DNA of 64,000 nt from assembly GCA_036406675.1 (NCBI GenBank), contig DASXAO010000047.1, positions 4,513 through 68,512 of the forward strand, in the 5' to 3' direction. Under the pieces are notes generated by a model that worked only from the letters and a program-made list of their open reading frames with translations, ran no database searches and was not told the origin of the DNA. The position numbers and the translations under genes were made by a program. Positions within the stretch are counted from its first letter, which is position 1; every line of letters starts with the position of its first letter. Positions 5,273-63,110 of this stretch are shown piece by piece. The DNA comes from Burkholderiales bacterium (lineage in GTDB: Bacteria > Pseudomonadota > Gammaproteobacteria > Burkholderiales > SG8-39).

Positions 5273-5308
5273 CACCCGCCCCTCGCGGGGCGGGGCGAAG
5301 CAACGCGG

Positions 5309-6471: not shown

Positions 6472-6525
6472 CTTGCAACCTCAGCAAGGCGGGATTAACG
6501 GATACGCCGGCGCGTTTTCCTTATT

Positions 6526-43569: not shown

Positions 43570-44354
43570 GCGCCGTCCCAAAATCGGAAGAGCTCTTACT
43601 GCGAGAGGAGCGTGAAGGCATCTGCACGCTGACCATGAACCGGCCTCAGCAGATGAACCTGCTGACCTCCGAGATGCTTTCCGCCCTGCAGTCCGCCTTC
43701 GATGACGTCTCGAAGGACGACAAAGTGCGGGTCGTCATCCTGGCCGCCGCGGGCAAAGGCTTCTGCGCCGGCCACGACCTGAAGGAGATCCGCGCGCTGA
43801 AGGAGCAACCGCGGATCGAGCAGCTCTTCGCCCAGTGCAGCCGCATGATGCAGGCCATCACCGCGCTGCCGCAGCCGGTGATCGCGCGCGTGCAAGGCGC
43901 GGCGGCGGCTGCCGGCTGCCAGCTCGTCGCCCAATGCGACCTCGCGGTCGCGTCGCAGGTGGCCAGGTTCACCACGCCGGGCGTCACCTGGGGATTCTTC
44001 TGCTCCACGCCCGGGGTCGCGGTCGGCCGCAACATCTCGCGCAAGCACGCAATGGAGATGCTTCTGACCGGCGATGTCATCGACGCACACAAGGCGCTGG
44101 AATGGGGCCTGGTCAACCGGGTGGTCCCGGCCGCTTCGCTCGACGAAGAGACACGCAAGCTGGCAGCGCGGATCGCGGAGAAGCCGCCCGAAACGACCGC
44201 CGCCGGAAAGCGCGCCTTCTACCAGCAGATGGACCTCGGTGTCGCCCGAGCCTACGACCTCGCGAGCCAGGTCATCTCCTCGAGCTTCGCCCACGCCGAA
44301 GGGCGCGAGGGCATGGACGCCTTCATCGACAAGCGAGCGCCGCCGAAGCATTGA
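43566..44354 (+). CDS. Enoyl-CoA hydratase/isomerase (crotonase) family protein
   Basis: GTGA overlap with the ligase stop. VVILAAAGKGFCAGHDLKE, AAAAGCQLVAQCDLAVAS, EGREGMDAFIDKR. Confidence 0.85.
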   Translation: MSAVPKSEELLLREEREGICTLTMNRPQQMNLLTSEMLSALQSAFDDVSKDDKVRVVILAAAGKGFCAGHDLKEIRALKEQPRIEQLFAQCSRMMQAITALPQPVIARVQGAAAAAGCQLVAQCDLAVASQVARFTTPGVTWGFFCSTPGVAVGRNISRKHAMEMLLTGDVIDAHKALEWGLVNRVVPAASLDEETRKLAARIAEKPPETTAAGKRAFYQQMDLGVARAYDLASQVISSSFAHAEGREGMDAFIDKRAPPKH

Positions 44355-44389
44355 TTGGCTGTATCATCCGCCCCTGGAGCGAGGGGCGG

Positions 44390-45145
44390 TTGGCCGACGA
44401 AACGATTCTCGAAACGCGCGGGCTGACCAAGGAGTTCAAGGGGTTCGTAGCGGTCAAGGACGTCTCGCTGAAGGTCCGGCGCGGCAGCATCCACGCGCTT
44501 ATCGGTCCGAACGGCGCCGGCAAGACGACGTGCTTCAACCTGCTCACCCACTTCCTTGAGCCGACGCGCGGGCAGATCTTCTTCAAGGGGCGCGAGATCA
44601 CCGGCTCGCCGCCCGCGCGCATCGCGCGCATGGGCCTCGTGCGCTCGTTCCAGATCTCGGCGGTCTTTCCGCACCTCACCGTGCTCGAGAACGTGCGCGT
44701 GGCGTTGCAGAGGAAGCGCGGCGCGTCGTTCGATTTCTGGAGATCGGAAAAAATCCTGAAAACGCTCGATGAGCCCGCCCGCGAGCTCATCGCCGCGGTG
44801 GGCCTGTCCGATTTCGAGGAGACCGTGGCGGTCGAGCTGCCCTACGGGCGCAAGCGCGCGCTCGAGATCGCGACCACGCTCGCGCTCGACCCGGAGATGA
44901 TGCTGCTCGACGAGCCCACCGCCGGCATGACGCATGCCGACGTGGAGCGGATCAGCGCGCTCATCAGGAAGGTGTCGGCGAACCGCACCGTGCTCATGGT
45001 CGAGCACAACCTCTCGGTCGTCTCCACGCTTTCGGACCGGATCACGGTGCTCCAGCGCGGCGAGATCCTCGCCGAAGGCGATTACGCGACGGTGTCGAAG
45101 AATCCGCAGGTCGTCGAGGCCTACCTGGGGGCGGGGCATGCTTGA
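44390..45145 (+). CDS. Branched-chain-amino-acid-type (HAAT family) ABC ATPase, LivG-like
   Basis: In-frame TTG at 44390 after GGAGCGAGGGG. ILETRGLTKEFKGFVAV, GPNGAGKTT, LPYGRKRALEIA, MLLDEPTAGM. Confidence 0.85.
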   Translation: MADETILETRGLTKEFKGFVAVKDVSLKVRRGSIHALIGPNGAGKTTCFNLLTHFLEPTRGQIFFKGREITGSPPARIARMGLVRSFQISAVFPHLTVLENVRVALQRKRGASFDFWRSEKILKTLDEPARELIAAVGLSDFEETVAVELPYGRKRALEIATTLALDPEMMLLDEPTAGMTHADVERISALIRKVSANRTVLMVEHNLSVVSTLSDRITVLQRGEILAEGDYATVSKNPQVVEAYLGAGHA

Positions 45146-45830
45146 GGTAAGAGGACTCAATGCCTGGTACGGCGAATCGCACATCCTCCACGGCATGGAC
45201 TTCGACGTCGGCGAAGGCGAGGTGGTGACCCTTCTCGGCCGCAACGGCGCCGGCAAGACCACCACCATGAAGTCGATCATGGGCATGGTCGGCCGCAGGA
45301 CGGGTTCAATAAAATTCAAGAATGAGGAATTGATTGGACTGCCGTCCAATCGCGTCGCGCGCCTGGGAATCGCGTTCTGCCCCGAGGAGCGCGGCATCTT
45401 CGCGAGCCTCGACGTGGAGGAGAACCTGATGCTGCCGCCGCAGGTGGCCGCGGGCGGCCTCGAGGTGCAGCGGATCTTCGAGCTCTTTCCCAACCTGCGC
45501 GAGCGCCTGAGGAGCCAGGGCACCAAGCTCTCCGGCGGCGAGCAGCAGATGCTCGCCATCGGCCGGATCCTGCGGACCGGGGCGCGGCTCTTGCTGCTCG
45601 ACGAGCCGACCGAGGGCCTCGCCCCGGTGATCGTGCAGCAGATCGGCCGCACGATCTCGCGGCTGAAGCAGCAGGGCTTCACCATCCTGCTGGTGGAGCA
45701 GAATTTCAGGTTCGCCCAGACGGTGGCCGACCGGCACTATATCGTCGAGCACGGGCGGGTCGTGGACATGGTCCCCGGGGCCCAACTCGAGGCCAACATG
45801 GGACGCGTGCACGAGTATCTCGGAGTCTGA
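45138..45830 (+). CDS. HAAT-family ABC ATPase, LivF-like
   Basis: MLEVRGLNAWYG, GRNGAGKTT, LSGGEQQMLAIGR, LLLDEPTEGLAP. 8-nt overlap with the upstream gene. Confidence 0.88.
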   Translation: MLEVRGLNAWYGESHILHGMDFDVGEGEVVTLLGRNGAGKTTTMKSIMGMVGRRTGSIKFKNEELIGLPSNRVARLGIAFCPEERGIFASLDVEENLMLPPQVAAGGLEVQRIFELFPNLRERLRSQGTKLSGGEQQMLAIGRILRTGARLLLLDEPTEGLAPVIVQQIGRTISRLKQQGFTILLVEQNFRFAQTVADRHYIVEHGRVVDMVPGAQLEANMGRVHEYLGV

Positions 45831-45855
45831 TTTCATAACTATGAAGGAGATGAAG

Positions 45856-47076
45856 ATGTCTGCAGTACGCAAGCTGAGTGCAGCGGTGGGCCTGGCGCTC
45901 GCCGCAATGGGCGCACCGATGGTGGCAAATGCTCAGGTGTCCGACGGCGTCATCAAGATCGGGGTGCTGTCCGACATGTCGAGCCTCTATGCCGACATCG
46001 GCGGTCCCGGGTCGGTCGTGGCCGCGCGCATGGCGGTCGAGGACTTCGGCGCCGCGAAGAAGGGCATGAAGGTCGAGATCGTCTCGGCCGACCACCAGAA
46101 CAAGCCCGACGTCGGCTCGGCCATCGCGCGCCAGTGGTACGACGTCGACAAGGTCGACGCGATCGTCGACGTGCCGACCTCGTCGGTCGCGCTGGCGGTG
46201 AGCCAGGTCACAAAAGACAAGGGCAAGGCGTTCCTGGTGTCGGGCGCCGCGACCTCCGACCTGACCGGCAAGGCCTGCTCGCCGAACACCGTGCACTGGA
46301 CCTACGACACCTGGATGCTCGCGAACGGCACCGGCAGCGCGATCGTCAAGAGCGGCGGCAACACCTGGTTCTTCATCACCGCCGACTACGCCTTCGGCCA
46401 CGCGCTCGAGCGCGACACCGAGCAGGTGGTGCTGAAGAACGGCGGCAAGGTGCTCGGCAAGGTGCGCCATCCGCTCAACGCGCAGGATTTCTCCTCGTTC
46501 CTGCTGCAGGCGCAGGCGTCCAAGGCGAAGATCATCGGGCTCGCCAACGCCGGCGGCGACACCATCAATTCGATCAAGCAGGCGGCCGAGTTCGGCATCG
46601 TCGAGCGCGGCCAGAACCTCGCCGGGATGCTGGTCTTCATCAGCGACGTGCACGGCCTCGGCCTCACCACCGCGCAGGGGCTGATCTTCACCGAGACGTT
46701 CTACTGGGACCTGAACGACCAGACGCGCGCCTTCACCAAGCGCTTCGCGCCGCAGAACAACAACAAGTACCCGACCATGGTGCAGGCGGGCGTGTACTCG
46801 GCGGTGCTGCACTACCTGAAGGCGGTCGAAGCCGGCAAGACCGACGACGGCACCAAGGTGGTGGCGAAGATGAAGGAGCTGCCGACCGACGATCCGCTTT
46901 TCGGCAAGGGACGCGTCCGCGCCGACGGCCGCAAGATCCACCCGGCCTACCTCGTCGAGGTGAAGAAGCCGGTCGAGTCGAAGGGGCCTTACGACTATTA
47001 CAAGATCAAGGCCCAGATTCCCGCCGACCAGGCGTTCCGACCGGAGAAAGAGGGAGGGTGTTCACTCGTCAAGTAG
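45856..47076 (+). CDS. HAAT-family periplasmic substrate-binding protein (LivK-like, Peripla_BP_6)
   Basis: ATG at 45856 is 6 nt after AAGGAG. Signal peptide MSAVRKLSAAVGLALAAMGAPMVANA. IKIGVLSDMSSLYADIGG is a typical N-terminus. Confidence 0.85.
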   Translation: MSAVRKLSAAVGLALAAMGAPMVANAQVSDGVIKIGVLSDMSSLYADIGGPGSVVAARMAVEDFGAAKKGMKVEIVSADHQNKPDVGSAIARQWYDVDKVDAIVDVPTSSVALAVSQVTKDKGKAFLVSGAATSDLTGKACSPNTVHWTYDTWMLANGTGSAIVKSGGNTWFFITADYAFGHALERDTEQVVLKNGGKVLGKVRHPLNAQDFSSFLLQAQASKAKIIGLANAGGDTINSIKQAAEFGIVERGQNLAGMLVFISDVHGLGLTTAQGLIFTETFYWDLNDQTRAFTKRFAPQNNNKYPTMVQAGVYSAVLHYLKAVEAGKTDDGTKVVAKMKELPTDDPLFGKGRVRADGRKIHPAYLVEVKKPVESKGPYDYYKIKAQIPADQAFRPEKEGGCSLVK

Positions 47077-47110
47077 CCTCCTCGGGTTGAGTTAGCAAAA
47101 AGCCAGGCCG

Positions 47111-47998
47111 ATGCCAGAGATCTTCGGCATTCCGTCGGCGGCGCTGTTCGGCCAGCTGTTGATCGGCCTGATCAACGGCTCGTTCTACGCGCTCCTGTCG
47201 CTCGGCCTGGCGGTGATCTTCGGGCTGCTCAACATCATCAACTTCACGCACGGCGCCCAGTACATGCTGGGCGCCTTCTGCGCCTACTTCCTGCTGAACC
47301 GGCTCGGCGTCGGCTACTGGTGGTCGCTCCTCATCGCGCCGCTCGCCGTCGGCGCCTTCGGCGTGCTGATCGAGCGCACCATGCTGAAGCCGCTCTACAA
47401 GCTGGATCATCTCTACGGCCTGCTCCTCACCTTCGGGCTCGCGCTGGTGATCCAGGGGCTGTTCCGCAACGAGTTCGGCTCCTCCGGCCTGCCGTACCCG
47501 ATCGCCAAGGAGCTCGCCGGCGGCCGCAACCTCGGCTTCATGTTCCTGCCGAACTACCGCGCCTGGGTGGTCGGCGCGTCGCTCGTCATCTGCATCGGCA
47601 CCTGGTTCGTGATCGAGCGCACCAAGCTCGGCTCGTACCTGCGCGCCGCGACGGAGAACCCGGCGCTGGTGCAGGCGTTCGGCATCAACGTGCCGCGCAT
47701 GATCACGCTCACCTACGGCTTCGGCGTGGCGCTCGCCGCGCTCGCCGGCGTGATGGCGGCGCCGATCTACCAGGTGAGCCCGCAGATGGGCTCCGACCTC
47801 ATCATCGTGGTGTTCGCCGTGGTCGTGATCGGCGGCATGGGCTCGATCATGGGCTCGATCGTGACCGGCTTCGGCCTGGGGATCATCGAGGGGCTGACCA
47901 AGGTGTTCTACCCCGAGGCTTCGAACACGGTGATCTTCATCATCATGGCGATCGTGCTCCTGATCAAGCCGGCCGGCCTGTTCGGAACCCAGAGATGA
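47111..47998 (+). CDS. HAAT-family ABC permease, LivH-like
   Basis: LLIGLINGSFYALLSLGLAVIFGLLNIINFTHG is the hallmark N-terminus. Confidence 0.88.
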   Translation: MPEIFGIPSAALFGQLLIGLINGSFYALLSLGLAVIFGLLNIINFTHGAQYMLGAFCAYFLLNRLGVGYWWSLLIAPLAVGAFGVLIERTMLKPLYKLDHLYGLLLTFGLALVIQGLFRNEFGSSGLPYPIAKELAGGRNLGFMFLPNYRAWVVGASLVICIGTWFVIERTKLGSYLRAATENPALVQAFGINVPRMITLTYGFGVALAALAGVMAAPIYQVSPQMGSDLIIVVFAVVVIGGMGSIMGSIVTGFGLGIIEGLTKVFYPEASNTVIFIIMAIVLLIKPAGLFGTQR

Positions 47999-52438: not shown

Positions 52439-52978
52439 CTACGTAACGTCCCCCGGTTCGGGCGGGCGCTTGACGCCGCTCAGCATGGCCGCCGCGAGGT
52501 TCTCGCGCTGACGCCAGCTCGTGTACGCCACGCCCGCGACGTGCAGCGCGGCGAGCGCGATTACCGCATCGCCGAGGAATTCGTGCGTTTCCTGGACCCA
52601 CTCGACGCCCCAAAAACGGTCGGTGACGGAAAGCCAGCCGGAGAGCGACGCAGCGGCGGCGGTCGAGAGGAGAGCGACGATCATCCAGCCGCCGAGCGGG
52701 TTGTGGCCCAGGTAGCGCGGCTCGTCGCCGCGCAGCACGGCTTTCGCATAGGCGAGCGTGCGTGCCGGTCCGGATACGAATTGGCGGAAGCGCGCGTAGC
52801 GCGGGCCGATCCAGCCCCAGGCGAAGCGCAGCGCGATCACGGCGAGCGCCGCGTAGCCGAGCCACTCGTGGAGCGGCTCGGCCCACTTGAGCTTCAATTC
52901 AGCGGTGATCCAGGCTGCGAGCACGCAGCCGGCGAGCGACCAGTGCGCGCTGCGCACGAACCGGTCCCAGACCCTCAC
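52439..52978 (-). CDS. Cytochrome b561 / Ni-hydrogenase b-type cytochrome family membrane protein
   Basis: VWDRFVRSAHWSLA..., four TM helices with conserved His (HW, HE, LHV). Typical partner of PepSY proteins. Confidence 0.75.
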   Translation of the reverse strand: MRVWDRFVRSAHWSLAGCVLAAWITAELKLKWAEPLHEWLGYAALAVIALRFAWGWIGPRYARFRQFVSGPARTLAYAKAVLRGDEPRYLGHNPLGGWMIVALLSTAAAASLSGWLSVTDRFWGVEWVQETHEFLGDAVIALAALHVAGVAYTSWRQRENLAAAMLSGVKRPPEPGDVT

Positions 52979-52984
52979 CGCGGC

Positions 52985-53284
52985 TCAGCCCTTGTGCGCC
53001 TTCGCGCCGCGGGGCACCGGCGCAAGCGTGCGCGGGTGGAAATAGGCCTCGGTGCGCTGTCCCTTGTCGTCGACCGCGTACACCTCGTAGCAGCCGCCGT
53101 CTTCCTTGATCCGCCGCACCTGCCAGCCTTTCTCCTTCAGCATCGCGGAGAGCTTGTCCTGCGATTGCCAGCCCTCGCGTGGGCCCGAGTCGCAGGTCGC
53201 GTAGCCCGTTGCCTGCGCGCCGGAAGCCATCAAGGTGAACGCCGCGGCGGCGCACAGCGGGGCGAAGAAACCTTTCTTGGACAT
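52985..53284 (-). CDS. PepSY-domain periplasmic protein
   Basis: ATG at 53284 (MSKKGFFAPLCAAAAFTLMASGAQA signal peptide). KLSAMLKEKGWQVRRIKEDGGCYEVYAVDDKGQRTEAYFHP is the PepSY pattern. Confidence 0.7.
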   Translation of the reverse strand: MSKKGFFAPLCAAAAFTLMASGAQATGYATCDSGPREGWQSQDKLSAMLKEKGWQVRRIKEDGGCYEVYAVDDKGQRTEAYFHPRTLAPVPRGAKAHKG

Positions 53285-53369
53285 GAGGTTCGATCCTCCT
53301 GGGACCGACATGCTACCCGGTCTCCCGGGCAGCATGCCGTTCCTGCTTGCTCAGCGGCCTTGGCCGCCG

Positions 53370-53831
53370 TCACGCCCGATGGCGATGATGCCGTCCGCCG
53401 CCAAGACGGTGGTCGGCGAGCGTCTTCTGCTCGGGCGTGAGCGTGGCGTAGAGGTCCTTCGTCAGGCCCGCCAGCTTCTCGAGGTACTCGCCCTGCTGTT
53501 TTGCGAACTGAGCCTGCCGCTCGACGCGCTCGGGCGCGCTCGGGCGCGTGTTGCCGGATGCGTTCTGGCGCATCTGGTTGTGCAACGCCTGCATTTCGCC
53601 CGCGTGCTGCTTGACCTGCTCGGCGTAGGCGTTCCACGCCGGTTCCTGCGCCGACGTGATCTTCAGGTCGGCCTTGAGGCGGGTCAGCCTCTTGTCGGCG
53701 GCCGCGACCGGATCGTGGGAATGGCCGTAGCCCGCTGCCGGGCTCGCGCCCTGGGCTTGTACCGCGCCCGCCCCGGCGCCCAAGGCCGCCGCCGCGGCGA
53801 ATCCGACTGCGATGTTTCTCCAGCTCTTCAT
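53370..53831 (-). CDS. Spy/CpxP-family periplasmic protein (LTxxQ motif)
   Basis: Signal peptide ending AVQA, an Ala/Gln-rich body with LTPEQ, and a His-rich C-terminus (GGGRHHRHRA). Confidence 0.7.
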   Translation of the reverse strand: MKSWRNIAVGFAAAAALGAGAGAVQAQGASPAAGYGHSHDPVAAADKRLTRLKADLKITSAQEPAWNAYAEQVKQHAGEMQALHNQMRQNASGNTRPSAPERVERQAQFAKQQGEYLEKLAGLTKDLYATLTPEQKTLADHRLGGGRHHRHRA

Positions 53832-53992
53832 CTGTGCCTCCGTGAATGTGGTGGAAAGCGACGGCTCATTAGAGCATCGGCGCGCGAGGGAACCCGCCCG
53901 GCTTTGTAAGCGCCTGTTGCGCAGGACGCCTTTGATACACGGAGTTACAAATCACGCACCCAGATTTACCGGGCGTGCTGCGATCCCGAGTG

Positions 53993-54355
53993 CTACCGGG
54001 TCGGAACGAAGGAGGCCGAGCCGGACTCGAGCGTCATGCGGCCCTCGTACCGGGTTTCGTCCAGGGTGAACGCGATGTTCTTCTTTGGCGGATAGGACGT
54101 CAGAAGGGCCATTCCGTACGACACGTCCCTGGCATGAAACGAAGTCTGTATCCACCGCGGGTCGGCGGTGTGCGGATTGCGTGCGAGGCCCGCGACGATG
54201 GCCTGGATAGCGTCGTAGTGCGCCGGGCTTGTCGCCTTGATCCCTTCCATGGCGCCGGGCGCATTCAGGTTTACGTGGCGCGGCGGCCGCGCATCCTGCG
54301 CGAAGGCGAATGAATAGAGGGCGGAAAGCAGAATTGCAGTGATCGAGCGCAGCAT
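53993..54355 (-). CDS. Secreted hypothetical protein (120 aa)
   Basis: Signal peptide MLRSITAILLSALYSFAFA/QD. No recognisable domain. Confidence 0.55.
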   Translation of the reverse strand: MLRSITAILLSALYSFAFAQDARPPRHVNLNAPGAMEGIKATSPAHYDAIQAIVAGLARNPHTADPRWIQTSFHARDVSYGMALLTSYPPKKNIAFTLDETRYEGRMTLESGSASFVPTR

Positions 54356-54431: not shown

Positions 54432-55910
54432 TCAGGCGGTGGGCCGGTGCAGGTAGCACCCACGCGGCGGGCCGAGCACCTTCCCGTTCTCGCACACGAG
54501 CTCGCCGCGCAGGAAGGTGGCCTTCACCCGCGCGGAAAGCTCGAGACCCTCGAAAGGCGTGTAGCCCTGGGTCGATTCGGAATCGGCGGAGTGGATCGTC
54601 CAGCTCTCGCGCGGTTCGACGAGCGCGAGGTCCGCGTCGAAGCCTTCCGCGATGTCGCCTTTCGCGTTCGCTCCGAAGCGGCGCGCCGGATTGGCGCTCG
54701 TCAGCGCCGCGATGCGGTTGTAGCTCACTCCTCTCCTGCTGCCCTCGGACACCAGGGCGGGAAGAAGGTATTCGGTTCCGCCGAAGCCCGATTTCGCCAG
54801 CCAGATATTTCCAAGCGCGTTCTTCGCCGCCTTGGTTTCGTGGCGGCAGCAGGCGTGGTCGCTCACCACCCAGTCGATCGCGCCTTCGGCGAGCTTCTGC
54901 CAGAGGTACTCGACGTCCTCTCGCGGCCGGATCGGCGGATTCACCTTGGCGAGCACGCCCGCTTTCGAATTCGTATCCAGCATCAGGTGGCCGATCGTGA
55001 CCTCGCGACGGAAATCGATGTGCGGGAAGAGGGCCTGCATCTGGAGCGCCGCGTCGAGCGCCTTTCTCGAGCTCAAGTGGAGCAGATTGATGTTCGGCAG
55101 CGCGCTCTCGGACGCAAGGTAGGCGGCGATGAAGACGGCGAGGCCTTCGGAATGCGGCGGCCGCGCGGCGTGGTATGCGGCGAGGCCCGAGAGCTTGCCC
55201 TCCCGCTCCACCATCCTGCTGTACGCGGTCATGATCTCGGCGGTCTCGCAGTGCAGCGACAGGCTGATCTGCGCCGCCTTGCGCGGAAAGCGCTCGCGCG
55301 CCGCCTGCACCCCGCGCATCACGAACTCGAAGTGCGCGTAGTCGTAGCGCTCGTCCTCGCCGATCATCAGGAAATCTCGCTGGCTGTCGGAGCGCCCGTG
55401 CAGGCCGTGCGAGCCGTAGAACATGAAGATCTTGAACGAGGCGACGCCGTGCTTCTCCACCAGCTCGGGGATCTCGCGGACATGAGCGGCGTCCATGGGC
55501 GCGAGGTGGTAGCCGTAGTCGACGTGGAAGCGCCCCTCGGAAAGCTTCAACACCTCGGGAAAGAACGCCGCGTACGGCCCGCCGCGGTTCAGGTAGTACT
55601 GGCCGGTCCTGAAGTAGTTGAGGCTCGTGGTCACGCCGCCCTGCGCCGCGGCGCGGCTCTCGCTCACCGCGTCTTCGGCGAGGGGCGCGTAGATGCCGGT
55701 GTGCATGTGCGCGTCGACCACGCCCGGGAACGCCAGACGGCCTTTGCCTTCGTAGACGTTCTTCGCTTCCCTGGGATCGATGGCCGGAGCAATTCTTGAG
55801 AATTTATCGCCGGTGATGGCGATGTCGGCTTCGCGCGGCGCATCGGCGTCCGGGCGAACGACGCGCACGTTCCGGATCAGCAGGTCGTACTTGCTACCGG
55901 CTTCGGCCAA
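54432..55910 (-). CDS. Cyclic amidohydrolase (D-hydantoinase/dihydropyrimidinase/enamidase-like)
   Basis: In-frame TTG at 55910 after GGAGAA gives (M)AEAGSKYDLLIRN. GVVDAHMH (HxH), SFKIFMFY (carboxylated-Lys position), LSLHCE, LLHLSS, VVSDHACC (Asp). The first ~54 codons of ORF 54432..56072 overlap the LeuD-like gene. Confidence 0.85.
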   Translation of the reverse strand: MAEAGSKYDLLIRNVRVVRPDADAPREADIAITGDKFSRIAPAIDPREAKNVYEGKGRLAFPGVVDAHMHTGIYAPLAEDAVSESRAAAQGGVTTSLNYFRTGQYYLNRGGPYAAFFPEVLKLSEGRFHVDYGYHLAPMDAAHVREIPELVEKHGVASFKIFMFYGSHGLHGRSDSQRDFLMIGEDERYDYAHFEFVMRGVQAARERFPRKAAQISLSLHCETAEIMTAYSRMVEREGKLSGLAAYHAARPPHSEGLAVFIAAYLASESALPNINLLHLSSRKALDAALQMQALFPHIDFRREVTIGHLMLDTNSKAGVLAKVNPPIRPREDVEYLWQKLAEGAIDWVVSDHACCRHETKAAKNALGNIWLAKSGFGGTEYLLPALVSEGSRRGVSYNRIAALTSANPARRFGANAKGDIAEGFDADLALVEPRESWTIHSADSESTQGYTPFEGLELSARVKATFLRGELVCENGKVLGPPRGCYLHRPTA

Positions 55911-56376
55911 GGCGCTTCTCCAGGTGGGCGAGCAGTCCGCCGTCGCGCACCATCTGCGCGAGGTGCGTCGGGATCGGCTCGCATTGCAGCGATTCGCCGG
56001 TAGTGAGGTTCGCGATTTGGCCCTTTTCGAAATCGACTCGAAGCTTGTCGCCGTCGCGAATGCGTTTCGCATCGGCCGAGACCACGGCCGGGAGGCCGAG
56101 GTTGAGCGCGTTGCGGTAGAAGAGGCCGGCGAACGATTCGGCGACCAGCGCCGCCACGCCGAGATGCTTGAGCGCCGCCGGCGCCTGCTCGCGCGAAGAG
56201 CCTGCGCCGAAATTGCGGCCGCCGACCACGACGTCGCCCGGCTTCACGCTGCGCGCGAATTCGGGCAGCACGGCCTCGAGGCAGTGCGGCGCGATCTCGG
56301 CGAGGCCGAACTTCATGTAGCGCCCCGGCGCGATCGCGTCGGTGTCGACGTTGTCGCCCAGGACCCAGGCCCTCAT
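55894..56376 (-). CDS. Aconitase-family dehydratase small subunit (LeuD-like)
   Basis: ATG at 56376 (ATGA overlap with the large-subunit stop). DNVDTDAIAPGRY, GRNFGAGSSREQA. Confidence 0.85.
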   Translation of the reverse strand: MRAWVLGDNVDTDAIAPGRYMKFGLAEIAPHCLEAVLPEFARSVKPGDVVVGGRNFGAGSSREQAPAALKHLGVAALVAESFAGLFYRNALNLGLPAVVSADAKRIRDGDKLRVDFEKGQIANLTTGESLQCEPIPTHLAQMVRDGGLLAHLEKRLGRSR

Positions 56377-57626
56377 TGCAGCAGCTCGCGCGGGTCGCAG
56401 ATGCGGCCGGCCACGGCCGTGGCGGCGACCGTGTACGGCGAGCCGAGGTACACCTGCGCCGACGCCGCGCCCATGCGGCCCTGGAAGTTGCGCGCGGTGC
56501 TCGAGATCGCCACCATGTTTTCGGGCAGGAGATGCTCGCCGTAGCCGGCGCAGAGACCGCAGCCGTTCGGCAGCAGCTCCGCCCCGGCCTGCAGAAGGAC
56601 TTGCAGCGTTCCCTCGCTTTGCGCCGCGTTCTGATCGCGCAGGCTGGCGGGCGCGACGAGTAGCCGGATGGCCGACTTGCGTCCCTTCAAGACGCGCGCC
56701 GCCATCCGCAGATCTTCGAGCTTCGCCCCGGTGCAGGCGCCGATGTAGGCGAGCTGCGGCCGCACATTCGTGAACTCGGTTACCGCCCGGGTATTGGCTG
56801 GGCTGTGCGGTGCCGCGACCTGCGGCGCGAGCTCGCTGGCATTGAAGCGGTGGTGCGCGAGAAGTGGCGCGTCTTCGTCGCTCCTCCACACTTCTGGATC
56901 ATTCAAGCCTAGAAAATCGTGAGTGGTTGCATCCGAAGCGATCAACCCCGTCTGAGCGCCGAGCTCGGCGGCCATGTTGCACAGGGTCATGCGCTCCTGC
57001 ATCGGCAGCGCGCGGATCGCCGGGCCGCGATACTCGACCGCCTGGTATTGACCGCCGTCGAGGCCGAAGCGGCCGATGAGGAACAGGATCGCGTCCTTGG
57101 CCGCGACGCCGGGGGCAAAGGCGCCGTCGAAATCCATGGCGATGGTGTGCGGCACCTTGAGCCAGATCTCGCCGGTGACGAGGACCCCGAGCATCTCGGT
57201 CGCGCCTACGCCGAACATGTACGCGGCAAAGGCGCCGCCGGTGGGGGAGTGGCTGTCGCCGCCGACCGCGAACATGCCCGGCTTCAGGTGGCCGCGCTCG
57301 GGCAGCACGACGTGGCAGATGCCCTGCTCGTCGTGGAAGTTGTCGATGCCGGCCTCTCGCACCCAGTCGCGCGTGATGCGGATGATCCTGCGGCTCTCCT
57401 CGTCGTAGGCGGGGACGTAATGGTCGGTGATGAGGACGACCTTCGACGGGTCCCACAGCTTCGCGCCGAGGCGCTCGAGCATCGGCTTGAGGCGCCGCGG
57501 CCCGCCCGAGTCGTGGATCATCGCGAGATCGACCTTGCAGGTGACGATCTCCCCGGGTGTCACCGAGCTGCGGCCCGCCGCGCGGGCGACCAGCTTCTGG
57601 GCCAACGTTGCCGGCATCTTCGACAC
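56373..57626 (-). CDS. Aconitase-family dehydratase large subunit (LeuC-like, Fe-S)
   Basis: GTG start. VGGDSHSPTGGAFA. Cluster Cys in IGACTGAK and NGCGLCAG. STARNFQGRMG. Confidence 0.88.
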   Translation of the reverse strand: MSKMPATLAQKLVARAAGRSSVTPGEIVTCKVDLAMIHDSGGPRRLKPMLERLGAKLWDPSKVVLITDHYVPAYDEESRRIIRITRDWVREAGIDNFHDEQGICHVVLPERGHLKPGMFAVGGDSHSPTGGAFAAYMFGVGATEMLGVLVTGEIWLKVPHTIAMDFDGAFAPGVAAKDAILFLIGRFGLDGGQYQAVEYRGPAIRALPMQERMTLCNMAAELGAQTGLIASDATTHDFLGLNDPEVWRSDEDAPLLAHHRFNASELAPQVAAPHSPANTRAVTEFTNVRPQLAYIGACTGAKLEDLRMAARVLKGRKSAIRLLVAPASLRDQNAAQSEGTLQVLLQAGAELLPNGCGLCAGYGEHLLPENMVAISSTARNFQGRMGAASAQVYLGSPYTVAATAVAGRICDPRELLQ

Positions 57627-57627
57627 C

Positions 57628-58392
57628 TTATCCCTGTTCCAGGAACTCCCGCAGCGCCTTCTCCGGCGGCTTGACGAAGTTCGAGCGGCGGCTGACCTTC
57701 GCCATGCCGAGCGCGCGCAATTTCACCGCCATTTCCGCGCTCTTGGCGATGAGCGTCACCCCGTTCACCACCGGCGCGCCGTCCATCTCCGTGCCGCCGA
57801 AGAGCATCATCGGCAGCCCGCCGGCCGGCACGATGACGTCGGCGCCGGCATCGAGCAGTGCGCGGCATTCGCGCTCCCATTTGGGATAGAGGGCGTCATG
57901 GGACTTCTTGTCGGCGAAGGCGTCGATGAAGTCCTTGACGCTGGCGTCGACCGCCCGCACTCCGACGACGCGCTGCTGAAGGCCGTAGCGGATCACCTGG
58001 TCCTCGTGCCAGGGGATGAACACCGGGTTGATGGTGACGAGCCCGAGCTTGCGCCCGAGCGTGCAGGCGTGGAAGAGCGTTGTCTCGCCCAGGCCGAGCA
58101 CGGGGAGGTCGACCACCGATTTCACCTCGGCGAGGCCCGCGTCCTGGAAATGCGTGATCGCCATCGCGGCATAGCCCTGCTTCTCGGCCTCGACCGCATT
58201 GCGAATCAGATTGCGCGCGATCCGGAACTCGGTGATCGCGTGCGTGGTCGTCGCGGGCGGCGTGGTGGTGTGGAACGTCGCCTCGAAGTCCGGCTCGAGG
58301 ATCGACTTCAGATGCGCCTCCACCTTGGCGATGTAAGGCGCCATGTGGATCTTGTCCGTCGCGCCCTGGAACCAGATCTTGTGCTTGCTCAT
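57628..58392 (-). CDS. Asp/Glu/hydantoin-racemase-fold protein (non-canonical active site)
   Basis: Aligns by eye to hydantoin racemase blocks. AMAITHFQDAGL corresponds to the usual ..IACFGDPGL.., and VIVPAGGLPMM to ..ILGCAGM... Both catalytic Cys positions appear substituted. Confidence 0.7.
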   Translation of the reverse strand: MSKHKIWFQGATDKIHMAPYIAKVEAHLKSILEPDFEATFHTTTPPATTTHAITEFRIARNLIRNAVEAEKQGYAAMAITHFQDAGLAEVKSVVDLPVLGLGETTLFHACTLGRKLGLVTINPVFIPWHEDQVIRYGLQQRVVGVRAVDASVKDFIDAFADKKSHDALYPKWERECRALLDAGADVIVPAGGLPMMLFGGTEMDGAPVVNGVTLIAKSAEMAVKLRALGMAKVSRRSNFVKPPEKALREFLEQG

Positions 58393-58490: not shown

Positions 58491-59270
58491 TCATGGCGTT
58501 TCCACCAATGCAATTGCACGCAAAGGACTGCCGCTGCCGTTGCGGATCTTGAGCGGGGCTGCGATCACGACCGCGCCGGTGGGCGGGAGCTGGTCGAGGT
58601 TGGCGAGGCATTGCAGGCCATAGCGGCCCGCGCCGTGCATGAAGTAGTGGCAGGGGTAGGGCGGGCGAAGATGCTGCGCCTGGCCGGCGTCGGTGCCGAT
58701 CGACTCGGTGCCGAAGCCCAGGAGGTCGCGTTCCTCGACCAGGAACTTCACCGCGCCGACGTCGGGTCCCGGGGTGTGCTGCCCGGTCTCGTCGTAGTTC
58801 TGGTAGGCGACCGGGTCGGAGCGCTTGGACCAGTCGGTGCGCATCAGCACCCAGGCTTTCGGCGGGATACGTCCGTGTTTCTTCTCCCAGGTTTTGATCC
58901 ACCCGACAGTGAGAAGGAAGTCGGCGTCTTTCGCCGCTTCTTCGCTGCAATCCAGGACCGAGGCCGGGCCGACGAAGCGCTCCGGCGCGATGCTGTCGGT
59001 GGCGTTCTGCGGCAGGTCCTTGCCCGAGATCCAGTGGATCGGCGCGTCGAAGTGCGTGCCGGTGTGCTCGCCGCAGGAGAAGTTGTTCCAGTACCAGGCG
59101 GGCCCGCGCTCGTCGTAGCGCGATACCTCCTCGATCCGGAACGGCCACGCCTGGCCCATCTCGGGTGGAAGCGAGATGTGCGGGAATTCGGGCGACAAGG
59201 TCTGGGTGAGATCGATGACGCGAATCTTCCCCGAGAGCAATTCCTTGGCGAGAGAGGCGAGGGTAGTCAT
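58491..59270 (-). CDS. Cyclase-family (kynurenine-formamidase-fold) metal hydrolase
   Basis: ATG at 59270 (ATGA overlap with the upstream gene). GEHTGTHFDAPIHW is the HxGTHxDxPxH motif. Confidence 0.82.
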   Translation of the reverse strand: MTTLASLAKELLSGKIRVIDLTQTLSPEFPHISLPPEMGQAWPFRIEEVSRYDERGPAWYWNNFSCGEHTGTHFDAPIHWISGKDLPQNATDSIAPERFVGPASVLDCSEEAAKDADFLLTVGWIKTWEKKHGRIPPKAWVLMRTDWSKRSDPVAYQNYDETGQHTPGPDVGAVKFLVEERDLLGFGTESIGTDAGQAQHLRPPYPCHYFMHGAGRYGLQCLANLDQLPPTGAVVIAAPLKIRNGSGSPLRAIALVETP

Positions 59271-60496
59271 GTCGACAGCTCTCTCTCCAGGGCCTTCGGA
59301 TTGTCCCGCCAGCGCTCGAGCCACTCCTGCGCCACGTCGCCGGGGTAGAGGTCCTCGACGCCTTCGCGCAGCGCCCGTACGATCGCGGCGGCGAGCGCCG
59401 CGGGAGCGAGCTTGGGCGGAGGAAGGAGCTGGCTCCACTCGTCGTCGATCGGCCCGGGAAACACGTTGACCACTCGCACGCCGGCTGGACGCATCTCGGC
59501 GCGCAGGCATTGCGCGAGCGACTGCGCAGCGGCCTTCGACGCAGAGAAGGTGCCGTGCGGCGGAAAATTGGCGAGCGCATAGATCGACAGCAGGTTGACC
59601 CAGGCCACCGCGCTCGCCTGGCCGTCGGCGCCGCGCGCGCGCATCGCCGGCCCGAATTCCTGGGCGAGGCGCAGCAACCCGAAGTAGTTGACGTCCATCT
59701 CGGCGCGCGCGGTCTCCACGCCCTGGCGGCCCGCGATGCCGTGCGTGCGGTGGAGCTCGGCGTTGCTAACCAGGATGTCGACCTTGGCGCCGATCTCGGC
59801 CGCAAGCTCGCGCACGTTCTTCGAATCGGTGACATCCAGCGGCACCAGGGTGACCTGCGGAAGCTTCTGCAGCTCGTCGAATCCCGGGAAGCGCTTCCAC
59901 GGCTCCGCGTATCCGACCCAGATGAGCTCGGCGCCCGCCGCGGCGAGCGCCTTGACGAGCGCCTGGCCGAGGCCGCTCTTGCCGTCGGTGACGAGCACCT
60001 TGCGATGCTTCGGGTCGCAGGCGAATTCGCGCAATTGGCGGTCTTCGGCCATGTTCACGTTCTCCTTGTCGGGTAAGCCCACGAGCACCGCCTGCCCGGC
60101 GCGGTCGAGGCGCGCCGTGACCCGCAGCCTCGCGGGGGCGTCCTGAACGTCGGCGTGAAGATGAGCGACCACGGTCGGGCCGCAGGTCAGCTTCGCGAGT
60201 CCGAGGCGCCACGGCAGGCGTTCGCGGAAGAAAAGATCGTTGCTGTGGTGCAGGACGGTGCTTGCGAGCAGCTCGGCCTCACCGGATTGAGGTTTCCAGA
60301 ATATTCCTGTCGAGAGGCAATTTTGGCAGGCCTCGCGCGGCGGGTACTGGACCGTCCCGCAATCGCGGCACTGCTGCAATTCGAACCTTCCCAGCGCCGC
60401 CGCTGCAGTGAGGCCGAGCGCCACGCGGCTGCGCGCCGCCGGCGGCAGCGTAGGCAGCCGGGTCCTGAGGATGGGATTTTTCCTCTTAAGGATCAT
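59267..60496 (-). CDS. Fusion: DUF35 (Zn-ribbon + OB-fold) domain + SDR-fold domain
   Basis: ATG at 60496 inside ORF 59267..61150. N-terminus has CRDCGTVQYPPREACQNC (CxxC..CxxC) plus an OB region. C-terminus has VLVTDGKSGLGQAL Rossmann motif and ..S-x12-FSASK where classical SDRs have YxxSK. Confidence 0.75.
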   Translation of the reverse strand: MILKRKNPILRTRLPTLPPAARSRVALGLTAAAALGRFELQQCRDCGTVQYPPREACQNCLSTGIFWKPQSGEAELLASTVLHHSNDLFFRERLPWRLGLAKLTCGPTVVAHLHADVQDAPARLRVTARLDRAGQAVLVGLPDKENVNMAEDRQLREFACDPKHRKVLVTDGKSGLGQALVKALAAAGAELIWVGYAEPWKRFPGFDELQKLPQVTLVPLDVTDSKNVRELAAEIGAKVDILVSNAELHRTHGIAGRQGVETARAEMDVNYFGLLRLAQEFGPAMRARGADGQASAVAWVNLLSIYALANFPPHGTFSASKAAAQSLAQCLRAEMRPAGVRVVNVFPGPIDDEWSQLLPPPKLAPAALAAAIVRALREGVEDLYPGDVAQEWLERWRDNPKALERELST

Positions 60497-61650
60497 GAGG
60501 CGAGGATTGCAGCGCCGCTGCCGAGGCCGCGGTCGTAGTTGATCATGCCGAATCCGCTCACCAATCCGATCTTCGCATCGCGCACCTGCCGCCCGGGCGC
60601 GTCGCCGGTGAGCTGCCGGATCGCTTCCACCATGCCGAGAAACCCGCCCGCCGCGCCCGCCTGCCCCGCGGAAAGCTGGCCGCCGCTCGTGTTGAGCGGG
60701 AAGTCGCCGTCCCAGGTGAAGCGGTGCTGGCGCAAGAAGGCTGGTCCCTCGCCCTTGCCGCAGAAGCCGAGGTCCTCGAGCTGCATCAGCGTGATGACCG
60801 GGTAGTCGTCGTAGGCCTGCACGAAATCGATGTCGCGCGGCGAGCAGCCCGCCTGGGCGTAGAGCCCGTCGCGATCGAGCGCCCAGCCGGCGCGTAGCTG
60901 GACTGGATCGGCGCTGAAGGCGTTGTGCCGCTCGATCGTGCCCAGCAGGCGGGCATGAGGAAGACCGAGACTTTTCGCTTTTTTTTCCGATAAGACCAGA
61001 AATCCTTCGGCGCCCGCACACGGCATGACGCAGTCGAAAAGATGCAGCGGCTCGGCGATCGGGCGTGCGCGGAGATACTCCTCCAAGGTCAATTCCTTCT
61101 TGAACAAAGCGTGCGCGTAACGCAGCGCGTTGGCACGCTGTGCCACGCAAAGCTTGCCGAAGTCCTCGCGCCTAACGCCGTAGCGTTGCATGTAGTGCGC
61201 AGTCAGGAAAGCGAAGCTCGCGTTCGGGCCGCCGGCGCCGTAGGGATAGACCGCGTCGCGCGCGAACTGGCTGAAATTCGCCAGCGTCAGGCGGAAGGAA
61301 TCCACGTGGTTGGTGTCGCCGGCGAGGCAGGCGACGACCTCGGCGTCTCCGGCCTGCACCGCTCGCGCGGCGCGCCTCACGGCGACGACGCCGCTTGCGC
61401 CGCCGAGCGGCACGTGGTCGAGCCAGCGCGGCGAGAGGCCGATGTGCTGGGTGAAGCCGATGGCCGTGTCGGGCGCGAGCGTGAAGCTCGACACCGTCAG
61501 GCCATCAATCTCCTCTTTTTTCAGCTTCGACTTCTCCAGAAGGGAGGAAAAGGCTCTTGCCAGCCACCAGTGCGCCGAGCGGATGGAGTAGCGCACGTAC
61601 GGCACGGTGACCGGCGCCGCGAGGACCACGCCGTGGTAAGGCTGCCTCAT
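60493..61650 (-). CDS. Thiolase-fold (SCP-x type) protein apparently lacking nucleophilic Cys and catalytic His
   Basis: ATG at 61650 (ATGA overlaps at both ends). VPLGGASGVVAVRRAARAVQAGDAEVV aligns to ..NNNCATGSTAL....IQGG.. (C->G). NTSGGQLSAGQAGAAGG aligns to ..NPSGGL.SKGHPLGATG.. (H->Q). Confidence 0.75.
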   Translation of the reverse strand: MRQPYHGVVLAAPVTVPYVRYSIRSAHWWLARAFSSLLEKSKLKKEEIDGLTVSSFTLAPDTAIGFTQHIGLSPRWLDHVPLGGASGVVAVRRAARAVQAGDAEVVACLAGDTNHVDSFRLTLANFSQFARDAVYPYGAGGPNASFAFLTAHYMQRYGVRREDFGKLCVAQRANALRYAHALFKKELTLEEYLRARPIAEPLHLFDCVMPCAGAEGFLVLSEKKAKSLGLPHARLLGTIERHNAFSADPVQLRAGWALDRDGLYAQAGCSPRDIDFVQAYDDYPVITLMQLEDLGFCGKGEGPAFLRQHRFTWDGDFPLNTSGGQLSAGQAGAAGGFLGMVEAIRQLTGDAPGRQVRDAKIGLVSGFGMINYDRGLGSGAAILAS

Positions 61651-63110
61651 TGCGGCCGGCGCTTCCTGTTGCGCAGGTCGAAGCGCTTGTCCGGATCGAA
61701 GGCGAAATCGGCCAGCTTCGCCTTCTGCACCTTGTTGGTCGAGGTGGTCGGCACGGCGTCGATGAAGGCGACGTAGCCAGGCGCCTTGAAGTAGGCGAGC
61801 CGCGCGAGGCAATGGTCTTGAATCGACCGTGCAAGCTCCAGATCCGCGGTTTCTTTGTTTTGCAAAACAATACAGGCAAAGACTTCTTCGTCGCGGACTG
61901 GGTCGGGTGCGGCGATGACCGCCACCTGGGCGACCGCGGCATGCTCGGCGAGCACGGCTTCCACCTCGAGTGCGGCGATGTTTTCCCCGGCGCGGCGGAT
62001 GATGTTCTTGATCCGGTCAACGAAATGCAGCTGGCCGTCCTCGCCGCGGCGGACCGCGTCGCCGGTGTGGAACCAGCCGCCGCGCCAGGCCGCTTCGGTG
62101 GCCGCCTCGTCCTTCAGGTAGCCGGAAAAGAAACCTCGGCGCGGATCGGCACCGGCCTGCCGGACCAGCAATTCGCCTTCCTTGGTGATCTGGGTTTCGA
62201 CTTCTTTGGGGGGAAAGCCGAAGCACCGCGTGCCGACGTGGCGCGGCTCGCGGCTCGCGGAGATCATCGCGCCGCCGCCGGTCTCGGTCATGGCCCAGGA
62301 CTCGGCCAGCGGGAAGCCGAAGCGCGCCTCGAAGGCGGCGTGGTCGCGCGGGTTCGCATTGGCGCCGAAGCCGAAACGCACGCGGTGCGAGCGATCGAGG
62401 TCGGAGGGTTCCTGGGAGAGAAGCATCGCCGGCATGACGCCGAGATAGTGCACGATCGTCGCGCGCGAGGCGGCGACGTCCCGCCACCAGGTCTTGGGAT
62501 GAAAGCGGTCGAGCTGCACCACGCAGCCCGCCGCCAGGATCATGGCCGTGGTCGACACCGCGAGCGCGTTCATGTGGAAAAGCGGCAGCGGTGTGATGAG
62601 CCGCTCCTCGCCTTCGCGCACGGAGCACAAGCCGCCCAATTCCAGATAGCGCCTGCCGACGTTGAGGAAGTAGAAGTCGTCGAGCAGGCAGCCCTTCGGC
62701 TGGCCGGTGGTGCCGGAGGTATAAAGCAGCGCGCACTCGGAGGCGTCCGCGCGGGGCCCGGGGGAAGGGGGGCTCTCCAGCGTATCGCGCGTGATGACGG
62801 CGCCGGCTTCGCTGTGCGCAAGCACGTATTCGAGCTCGGCGGCGCGATAGTCCGGATTGACGGGCACCACTGCCGCGCCGAGCGAATTGAGCGCGAGGAA
62901 GTGCAGCAGGAATTCCGGGCAGTTCGGCAGCCGCAGCGCCACTCGGTGGCCGGCGCCATATCCCGCCTCGCGGTACCGCCGGGAAATGGAATCGACCCGG
63001 CTCAAGGCATCGCCGTAGCGGTACTCGATGCCTTCGGACAAAACTTGAAGGAAGGGCTTCGCGCCGTGCGCGCGGGCGGTGCGCTCGAAGGCGGAGAAGA
63101 CCGTCGTCAC
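61647..63110 (-). CDS. AMP-dependent acyl-CoA synthetase/ligase (short, 487 aa)
   Basis: GTG at 63110 inside ORF 61647..63938 (start uncertain, no clear SD). YTSGTTGQPKGC, WAMTETGG, WFHTGD, TSTNKVQK. Confidence 0.8.
   Translation of the reverse strand: MTTVFSAFERTARAHGAKPFLQVLSEGIEYRYGDALSRVDSISRRYREAGYGAGHRVALRLPNCPEFLLHFLALNSLGAAVVPVNPDYRAAELEYVLAHSEAGAVITRDTLESPPSPGPRADASECALLYTSGTTGQPKGCLLDDFYFLNVGRRYLELGGLCSVREGEERLITPLPLFHMNALAVSTTAMILAAGCVVQLDRFHPKTWWRDVAASRATIVHYLGVMPAMLLSQEPSDLDRSHRVRFGFGANANPRDHAAFEARFGFPLAESWAMTETGGGAMISASREPRHVGTRCFGFPPKEVETQITKEGELLVRQAGADPRRGFFSGYLKDEAATEAAWRGGWFHTGDAVRRGEDGQLHFVDRIKNIIRRAGENIAALEVEAVLAEHAAVAQVAVIAAPDPVRDEEVFACIVLQNKETADLELARSIQDHCLARLAYFKAPGYVAFIDAVPTTSTNKVQKAKLADFAFDPDKRFDLRNRKRRPQ

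Follow-up and report, generated by a model that had tools for sequence, protein, structure and literature searches.

A 64,000-nucleotide stretch of DNA from a Burkholderiales bacterium (GenBank assembly GCA_036406675.1, contig DASXAO010000047.1, positions 4,513 to 68,512; hereafter the window) encodes a 385-residue thiolase-fold protein in which the catalytic residues of thiolases have been lost. The protein is identified here by sequence as an ortholog of IadG from the iad auxin (indole-3-acetic acid, IAA) degradation locus, and it is flanked in order by relatives of IadF, IadH and IadI. It is probably a retro-aldol lyase that converts the coenzyme A (CoA) ester of dioxindole-3-acetic acid (DOAA), dioxindole-3-acetyl-CoA, to isatin and acetyl-CoA. 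We favor this reading because the loss of the thiolase Cys and His, the retention of an aldolase Tyr, the ligase encoded in front and the isatin hydrolase encoded behind all fit one scheme. The gene and its putative active-site positions are listed below, with the corresponding residues of the retro-aldolase CtSal (PDB 9myr) for comparison.

60493..61650, minus strand: IadG-like thiolase-fold protein, 385 residues, starting MRQPYHG; putative dioxindole-3-acetyl-CoA retro-aldolase (Pfam, PDB alignments, orthologs, predicted model)
61399..61401, minus strand: codon of Gly84, at the thiolase nucleophilic Cys position (CtSal Gly89; alignments to 7pxp, 7yvy and 9myr, translation checked)
60802..60813, minus strand: Y280-D281-D282-Y283 motif, with Tyr280 the putative catalytic base and Asp282 the putative catalytic acid (CtSal Y302-D-C304-Y, TcLtp2 YDHF, SCP2 thiolase HDCF)
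60661..60678, minus strand: Gln325 to Gln330 (CtSal Gln347 and Gln352), Gln330 being at the thiolase GHP His position (alignments, codons checked)

Pfam matched the protein to Thiolase_C_1 (E = 1.3e-36), with a sub-threshold match to Thiolase_N, and an AlphaFold model built from a 55-sequence alignment (pLDDT 93.3, the predicted local distance difference test score) aligned by Foldseek to thiolase-fold structures in the PDB with template modelling (TM) scores of 0.80-0.87. As the domain match, the predicted model and the structural search agree, the predicted fold is the two-lobed thiolase fold. In HMMER alignments, Gly84, within LGGASG (61390..61407), occupies the position at which BbsB 7pxp (CSAG) and the Pyrococcus thiolase 7yvy (AACASG) have their nucleophilic Cys, and Gln330, within GGQLSAGQAGAAGG (60643..60684), takes that of the GHP His in the same two structures, so that the protein lacks both residues that those enzymes retain. 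The acid/base Cys of thiolases, which resides in a C-terminal CxG or, in SCP2, in HDCF, is likewise without a counterpart. Its C-terminal loop reads S-G-F-G-M, and YDDY occupies the NEAF/HDCF-equivalent loop, where thiolases of the 7pxp/7yvy type read HDAF or HDCF.

Gly84, Y280, D281, D282, Y283, Q325 and Q330 are invariant in all 78 members of an ortholog set spanning alpha-, beta- and gammaproteobacteria at 67-92% identity. Because of this invariance, the loss of the thiolase residues is an ancient and selected state, not an accident of sequencing or alignment. No NCBIfam thiolase model reaches its cutoff for the protein (best 202 bits vs 421), and NCBIfam leaves the thiolase-like, racemase-like and hydrolase proteins of the locus without a name at family level. 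The first-pass annotation had proposed from the letters that the nucleophilic Cys is replaced by Gly and the catalytic His by Gln; both replacements are borne out by these alignments, and its view that a classical thiolase mechanism looks impossible is supported.

That annotation had also named the cysteines of VVACLAGD and DCVMPCAG as residues that, if they occupied catalytic positions, would make the protein an ordinary thiolase. In the alignments VVACLAGD falls on the strand following the N-alpha3 helix and FDCVMPCAG on the '..sDGAAA' segment, both of them non-catalytic positions, and rescue of thiolase chemistry by either Cys was rejected on alignment position, the absent His and the chemistry of the substrate. 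A thiolase or acyltransferase with a relocated nucleophile, such as Cys207 or Cys211, would match the database annotations ('thiolase family protein / acetyl-CoA acetyltransferase') and the published label 'ketothiolase EC 2.3.1.16' (preprint 10.1101/2025.10.25.684584), and Asp206, Cys207 and Cys211 (codons Cys207..Cys211 at 61018..61032, in FDCVMPCAG) are indeed invariant in 78/78 orthologs and common in a wider clade sharing the YDDY motif. However, these two cysteines align with the pantetheine-tunnel segment and not with a catalytic loop, and CtSal has Ile and Ala at their positions. In addition, there is no His for thiol activation, Gly84 and Gln330 are invariant, the annotations are automatic, and the compound that accumulates in iad mutants is unable to form a 3-keto group. 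We regard a relocated nucleophile as very improbable.

The closest structural precedents for the protein are aldolases. Its top PDB sequence match is chain 9myr_A, CtSal (E = 1.4e-47), followed by TcLtp2 (6ok1, 2e-38), and the top Foldseek match of the predicted model is again 9myr_A, from the Sal-Shy(DUF35) complex (TM 0.87), with the Ltp2-ChsH2(DUF35) structure 6ok1 at rank 4. CtSal is a retro-aldolase that acts on bile-acid side chains in Comamonas testosteroni, and it was crystallised in complex with the DUF35 domain of the hydratase with which it works. Experiments showed Tyr302 and Cys304 of its YDCY loop to be essential; Cys304 is supported by Gln347 and Gln352, and Gly89 stands where thiolases have their nucleophile. 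TcLtp2 uses Tyr294 of its YDHF loop together with Tyr344 (PMC12329534). After the numbering offset was checked, the CtSal equivalents were Gly89 for Gly84, Tyr302 for Tyr280, Cys304 for Asp282, Tyr305 for Tyr283, Gln347 for Gln325 and Gln352 for Gln330, and the Sal-site equivalents Tyr280, Asp282, Gln325, Gln330 and Asn143 are unchanged across the three proteobacterial classes.

The likeness to CtSal-CtShy thus covers the thiolase fold, Gly at the nucleophile position, the Tyr of a YDxY loop and two Gln residues. A DUF35 partner is encoded here too, and the same type of reaction, from beta-hydroxyacyl-CoA to acetyl-CoA and a carbonyl compound, is proposed. There are also differences: identity to CtSal is only ~30-32%, the two proteins fall in separate clades, CtSal belongs to steroid catabolism whereas the context here is auxin, and the DUF35 domain of CtShy has a Cys3His ribbon and is fused to a MaoC hydratase, whereas the DUF35 domain here is N-terminal, has a Cys4 ribbon and is fused to an SDR-like domain. 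Judged by its sequence, the protein has the Sal architecture with Asp in place of the essential Cys of Sal.

TcLtp2-ChsH2 shares the thiolase fold without a nucleophilic Cys, the Tyr of a YDxF loop (Tyr294, equivalent to Tyr280) and a DUF35 partner with a Cys4 ribbon. TcLtp2, an actinobacterial aldolase of the C3 steroid side chain, cleaves a beta-hydroxyacyl-CoA bearing a tertiary alcohol (17-hydroxy) and leaves a ketone on the ring, as conversion of DOAA-CoA to isatin would do, although it releases propionyl-CoA where acetyl-CoA is proposed here. Its Tyr344 is without an equivalent, as the aligned loop GQAGAAGG contains no Tyr, and its His296 position is taken by Asp282. The first-pass suggestion of an Ltp2-like aldolase with a DUF35 partner stands insofar as the fold is repurposed, the nearest solved relatives are Sal-Shy and Ltp2-ChsH2, and the catalytic Tyr is kept; it needs amending in that the protein is closer to Sal and is of neither catalytic type, with Asp282 for Cys304 and nothing in place of Tyr344.

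For a wider survey of the motif, 1.84 billion cluster representatives were searched exhaustively without a profile, and full-length representatives were taken from the result. Among these, YDDY combined with both Gln residues and with Gly in place of the nucleophile predominates from 67% down to ~32% identity. Sal-like sequences read YDC[YF] with Gln, and the group around Ltp2 and 4u4e mostly has His at the thiolase-His position (Tyr in Ltp2 itself), where the window protein has Gln. In a rough neighbor-joining tree, which is distance-based, unbootstrapped and indicative only, all YDDY proteins, the window protein among them, group together in a single clade whose sister is the Sal group. Further members of the YDDY clade likewise adjoin DUF35 genes and CoA ligases, while the contigs of two members (P0133 and P0176) were too short for gene context to be read. 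Separately, a metagenome contig (L085) carries P0125, a 52% identical relative of the YDDY clade, together with another thiolase-like gene and another DUF35::SDR fusion, as well as genes for a stand-alone DUF35 protein, a CoA ligase, a thiamine pyrophosphate (TPP) enzyme and an aldehyde dehydrogenase, and looks like another, uncharacterised CoA-ester aldolase pathway.

The genes on either side of the IadG-like gene tie it to the iad locus. Overlapping ATGA sequences, read directly, join the ligase stop to the IadG-like start, the IadG-like stop to the start of a DUF35-SDR fusion, and the stop of the fusion to the isatin hydrolase start, confirming the two gene overlaps, with an acyl-CoA ligase gene at one end and a DUF35 partner gene at the other, that had been noted from the letters alone. 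The four genes are thus arranged for translational coupling, and Pfam supports the two proposed neighbors as an AMP-binding ligase and a zf-ChsH2, OB_ChsH2_C and adh_short fusion. The three genes are as follows:

61647..63110, minus strand: IadF-like AMP-forming acyl-CoA ligase, 487 residues, putatively activating DOAA to its CoA ester (Pfam AMP-binding and AMP-binding_C; 487-residue gene call on the identical contig L081)
59267..60496, minus strand: IadH-like fusion, 409 residues, with an N-terminal DUF35 domain followed by an SDR-like domain (Pfam zf-ChsH2, OB_ChsH2_C and adh_short; ATGA overlaps at both ends)
58491..59270, minus strand: IadI-like isatin hydrolase, 259 residues, cyclase family PF04199 (matches to PDB isatin hydrolases; identities to 5nnb and to IadI of a canonical iad locus)

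A neighborhood survey with one genome per species returned at least 555 relatives, and in the best 80, which were examined, the order ligase, thiolase-like protein, DUF35::SDR fusion and cyclase-family protein is conserved. More distant loci add an IorA/IorB-like 2-oxoacid:ferredoxin oxidoreductase, a Fer2/NAD reductase, Rieske oxygenase alpha and beta subunits, a second SDR and ABC (ATP-binding cassette) binding proteins. This content is exactly that of the published iad locus, iadA, B, C, D, E, F, G, H, I, J and K (gene table, PMC12852158). The published order, MarR-iadA-B-C-D-E-F-G-H-I-J-K, was found on a Variovorax paradoxus contig (L092) whose IadG is 69% identical to the window protein over 382 residues without gaps and has the same motifs, and Roseibium (Labrenzia) aggregatum and Ruegeria pomeroyi DSS-3 carry a C-D-E-F-G-H-I-J block on plasmids. 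Against a canonical iad locus (L059), the ligase is 52%, the IadH-like protein 69% and the IadI-like protein 72% identical, G, H and I together spanning 69-72%. The IadG proteins of the Variovorax and Bradyrhizobium iad loci (Conway 2022, PMC9613470; preprint 10.1101/2025.10.25.684584) share both the motifs and the F-G-H-I neighbors. There IadG is described as a ketothiolase and its partner IadH as an alcohol dehydrogenase, labels that the sequences do not bear out.

The identity of the last enzyme in the cassette constrains the product of the step before it. The IadI-like protein matches isatin hydrolase A (5nnb/5nna/5nmp) at E = 1e-110, with 64% identity to 5nnb, and isatin hydrolase B (4j0n) at 7.5e-84. 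As the crystallised 5nnb is 96% identical to the product of the gene directly after iadH in R. aggregatum, the enzyme following the thiolase-like/DUF35 pair hydrolyses isatin. Sequence identity thus marks IadI, annotated as a kynurenine formamidase or cyclase, as an isatin hydrolase.

The IadH-like partner divides into two domains:

60125..60406, minus strand: DUF35 domain, residues ~31-124, with a Cys4 zinc ribbon (C43, C46, C57, C60) and an OB fold; putative docking partner of the aldolase
59270..60010, minus strand: SDR-like Rossmann domain, residues ~163-409, with degenerate motifs (alignment to SDR structures)

Over its first 150 residues, the partner matches the DUF35 chains of an archaeal thiolase complex (6esq_E), of ChsH2 (6ok1_B), of Shy (9myr_B) and of PhlB, and the four ribbon cysteines are invariant in 68/68 orthologs. 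By analogy with these complexes, the DUF35 domain would dock the IadG-like protein in a physical complex. Here the domain is fused to an SDR-like domain and not to a MaoC-type hydratase, and its neighbors are isatin hydrolase and CoA ligase genes, not steroid side-chain genes. The SDR-like domain has the cofactor motif T-D171-G-K-S-G-L-G compared with TGxxxGxG, with Asp171 invariant where SDRs have Gly, and Phe317 at the catalytic Tyr position. Across the 68 orthologs, position 317 is F in 34, Y in 17 and W in 13, and position 321 is K in 48, M in 7, Q in 5 and E in 4; Tyr and Lys are both kept in only 14/68, and those that do not keep them include canonical Rieske-bearing loci, the V. paradoxus IadH reading FSASK. 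The domain is probably a pseudo-dehydrogenase, the alcohol dehydrogenase role given to IadH in the preprint appears doubtful on these motifs, and the DUF35 domain offers a simpler reason why iadH is essential.

The pattern of conservation in the two partners also bears on whether the IadG-like protein is a catalyst. It could instead be a pseudo-thiolase, a scaffold without catalytic activity, in which case the C-C bond would be broken spontaneously, by the SDR-like domain of IadH or by some other enzyme. None of the three canonical thiolase catalytic residues is left, and DUF35/thiolase-like assemblies can serve an architectural purpose, an example being the archaeal thiolase/HMG-CoA synthase complex. 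However, the Sal-site residues, invariant over three classes, persist to ~32% identity in the YDDY clade, which is the signature of a working site, and deletion of iadG blocks the pathway at DOAA. Relaxed constraint at catalytic positions is found in the SDR-like domain and not in the IadG-like protein, and a scaffold role is improbable.

The proposed aldolase reaction follows from the structure of the proposed substrate. DOAA is 3-hydroxy-2-oxindole-3-acetate, in which C3 is quaternary and bears a tertiary hydroxyl, and DOAA-CoA is a tertiary beta-hydroxyacyl-CoA. Because C3 is quaternary, DOAA-CoA cannot be oxidised to a 3-ketoacyl-CoA, which excludes thiolysis for any enzyme, while retro-aldol cleavage yields isatin and acetyl-CoA directly. 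Published work on V. paradoxus shows that IadCDE and IadJ convert IAA to DOAA, and that deletion of iadF, G, H or I causes C10H9NO4 (DOAA) to accumulate and anthranilate to fall (preprint 10.1101/2025.10.25.684584). Isatin, isatinate and anthranilate are detected intermediates of the iad pathway in the literature. The first-pass idea of a CoA-ester retro-aldolase acting outside steroid metabolism gains support from the kinship with Sal and Ltp2, the kept Tyr, the tertiary beta-hydroxyacyl-CoA substrate and the neighboring isatin hydrolase.

In the proposed mechanism, the IadF-like ligase would convert DOAA, ATP and CoA to DOAA-CoA, and the IadG-like lyase would dock to the zinc-ribbon/OB (DUF35) domain of IadH and cleave the C3-CH2 bond by a retro-aldol reaction. 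By analogy with CtSal, Tyr280 would deprotonate the tertiary C3 hydroxyl of DOAA-CoA, and the resulting acetyl-CoA enolate would be stabilised by the backbone NH near Met369 (Gly391 in CtSal) and by nearby polar residues. Asp282, positioned by Gln325 and Gln330, would then, on the same analogy, protonate the enolate, and isatin and acetyl-CoA would be released. No covalent acyl-enzyme would form, the lyase would need neither free CoA nor NAD(P), and the IadI-like isatin hydrolase would open isatin to isatinate. Another non-thiolytic reaction of a CoA ester, either decarboxylation or condensation in the biosynthetic direction, has some basis in that the trypanosomal SLP TbSLP, a structural neighbor by Foldseek, slowly decarboxylates malonyl-CoA according to the literature, and in that aldolases are reversible in principle. 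Nevertheless, the operon is catabolic, with a ligase before and an isatin hydrolase after, the mutants accumulate DOAA, and CtSal is without malonyl-CoA decarboxylase activity (PMC12329534). This is the least probable of the alternatives, with very little chance of being correct.

Several observations weigh against the assignment of the IadG-like protein as a DOAA-CoA lyase. In CtSal, the Cys304 variants tried, C304A/S/H, were all inactive (PMC12329534), and Asp282 sits at the Cys304 position. The putative oxyanion-hole Gln161 of CtSal aligns with Pro142, and the retro-aldolase reading does not account for the invariance of Cys207 and Cys211. The preprint (10.1101/2025.10.25.684584) gives C8H7NO2 (dioxindole, isatin plus two H) as the IadFGH product and terms the step 'reductive', and dioxindole as the product would require a reductase activity of IadH or an unspecific cellular reduction of isatin. 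A genuine IadH reductase was not adopted as the default explanation, since Tyr and Lys are unconserved even in canonical iad loci, including that of V. paradoxus; C8H7NO2 would instead arise from unspecific reduction of isatin, and the report would count against a simple retro-aldol cleavage if IadH proves to be an active reductase. Finally, tblastn searches of the window with IadA-E and IadJ of the canonical locus (L059) returned no orthologs, the weak SDR and ligase matches elsewhere being generic, so that F, G, H and I are the only iad homologs found in the 64 kb with L059 queries. The window ligase is just 52% identical to canonical IadF, and the acid that it activates could differ.

In place of the oxygenase genes, the cassette is accompanied by genes of other kinds. 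Those upstream lie on the source contig beyond window position 64000, and the others follow the isatin hydrolase gene:

1593..7259 on the identical contig L081, divergent: DctP/DctQ/DctM TRAP transporter genes and a two-subunit molybdenum hydroxylase, Fer2 and MoCoBD (gene calls)
57628..58392, minus strand: Asp/Glu/hydantoin-racemase-family protein, 98 nucleotides downstream of the isatin hydrolase gene and co-directional (Pfam Asp_Glu_race; no NCBIfam match)
55894..57626, minus strand: LeuC/LeuD-like (aconitase-family) large and small dehydratase subunits, co-directional (Pfam Aconitase and Aconitase_C; NCBIfam PRK00402 and LeuD/DmdB family)
54432..55900, minus strand: cyclic amidohydrolase, allantoinase/hydantoinase/dihydroorotase-like, with an uncertain start (Pfam Amidohydro_1/3; NCBIfam allantoinase and hydantoinase models all below cutoff)

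The TRAP transporter and molybdenum hydroxylase genes fill the place where canonical iad loci have Rieske oxygenase genes, and could provide an alternative, oxygenase-independent supply of substrate. An SDR encoded beside the TRAP genes in one relative (L001) was considered as IadJ and was not convincing at 30-35% identity. The racemase/LeuCD/amidohydrolase run (54432..58392, minus strand) follows the cassette only in the window-type Burkholderiales clade. Within that clade the racemase-family gene is kept after the isatin hydrolase gene, and it also occurs near the iad loci of Bradyrhizobium and Rhizobium, while the LeuC/LeuD-like genes are confined to the clade among the relatives examined. 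The window-type arrangement forms one clade of uncultured soil Burkholderiales, nested among Rieske-bearing loci in the IadG tree, and the F-G-H-I cassette appears to have been retained while its supply route changed.

These neighbors raise the question of whether the same retro-aldol chemistry is applied to another tertiary beta-hydroxyacyl-CoA, such that the Rieske-less module associated with TRAP and molybdenum hydroxylase genes serves a heterocyclic acid other than auxin-derived DOAA. This would be consistent with the missing iadA-E and iadJ in the window, the divergent DctPQM and Fer2/MoCoBD genes, the low identity of the ligase, and the racemase-like, LeuCD-like and cyclic-amidohydrolase genes that follow in the window-type clade alone. 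However, G, H and I retain 69-72% identity to canonical iad proteins, the hydrolase retains 64% identity to a crystallised isatin hydrolase, and the nesting of the clade among Rieske-bearing iad loci looks like the same reaction with a changed supply. In addition, DOAA and oxIAA (2-oxindole-3-acetic acid) arise abiotically and in plants, DOAA having been reported in media controls, which makes a transporter-fed DOAA module plausible. A different substrate is unlikely, and we retain DOAA-CoA as the proposed substrate of the window lyase.

A scan of 54000-64000 for promoters and terminators gave fewer matches than shuffled sequence and was uninformative. Downstream of the amidohydrolase, a run of small envelope-type genes (52439..54355, minus strand) encodes a cytochrome b561, a PepSY-domain protein, an LTXXQ-motif protein and a 120-residue protein with no Pfam match and a hydrophobic-looking N-terminus; these are probably unrelated to the cassette. 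Elsewhere in the window, a 477-residue open reading frame (44252..45685, minus strand) with gene-like codon bias and no Pfam match adjoins a branched-chain-type ABC transporter (Peripla_BP_6 and permease, 45841..47998).

With respect to novelty, thiolase-fold aldolases with DUF35 partners are already known, Ltp2 from 2019 and Sal from 2025. In the literature outside subscription journals, in which IadG is a thiolase or ketothiolase, no mention was found of an aldolase assignment, of DOAA-CoA or of the missing catalytic residues of IadG. In the ibuprofen pathway of Sphingomonas Ibu-2 and Rhizorhabdus wittichii MPO218, the thiolase-like/partner pair IpfD/IpfE is known genetically to release propionyl-CoA (PMC9195938). 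Like the iad pathway, that pathway degrades a non-steroid aromatic acid with a CoA ligase, a Rieske oxygenase and a thiolase-like protein with a small partner; IpfD/IpfE remove propionyl-CoA from a hydroxylated ring carbon, and the likeness to IadG-IadH is drawn from the described pathway. IpfE is presumably a DUF35 protein. The first-pass expectation that non-steroid C-C cleavage by such an enzyme would be new holds for the aldolase role of IadG, which was not found in the literature searched, and gives way in two respects, as the family is the iadG of a published auxin locus and IpfDE is a genetic precedent for non-steroid cleavage. We rate as new the Tyr/Asp catalytic pair, the fusion of DUF35 to a degenerate SDR, and a new, ecologically important class of substrate.

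A broader proposal, to which we give about even chances, is that the YDDY proteins are a third, widespread and non-steroid class of thiolase-fold CoA-ester retro-aldolases, with a Tyr/Asp pair compared with Tyr/Cys in Sal and Tyr/Tyr in Ltp2. The first member to which a function can be assigned would be IadG-IadH, as a dioxindole-3-acetyl-CoA lyase whose partner combines DUF35 with a dead SDR, and the published 'ketothiolase plus alcohol dehydrogenase, reductive side-chain removal' would be a mis-assignment. On the same proposal, F-G-H-I would be a portable DOAA-to-isatinate cassette, linked anew to other supply routes in soil Burkholderiales.

The iad locus lets Variovorax and other root bacteria clear excess auxin and so restore root growth, and it is now being engineered into commensals. 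Its central C-C cleavage is drawn in the literature as the work of a ketothiolase and an alcohol dehydrogenase, and the sequences disagree. A stereoselective catalyst of the isatin/acetyl-CoA aldol reaction may also be of synthetic interest. The retro-aldolase reading would correct and mechanistically complete a currently important pathway by a mechanism that is directly testable, and it would extend the thiolase-fold aldolases beyond steroids and define a large uncharacterised YDDY clade whose members are currently annotated as acetyl-CoA acetyltransferases.

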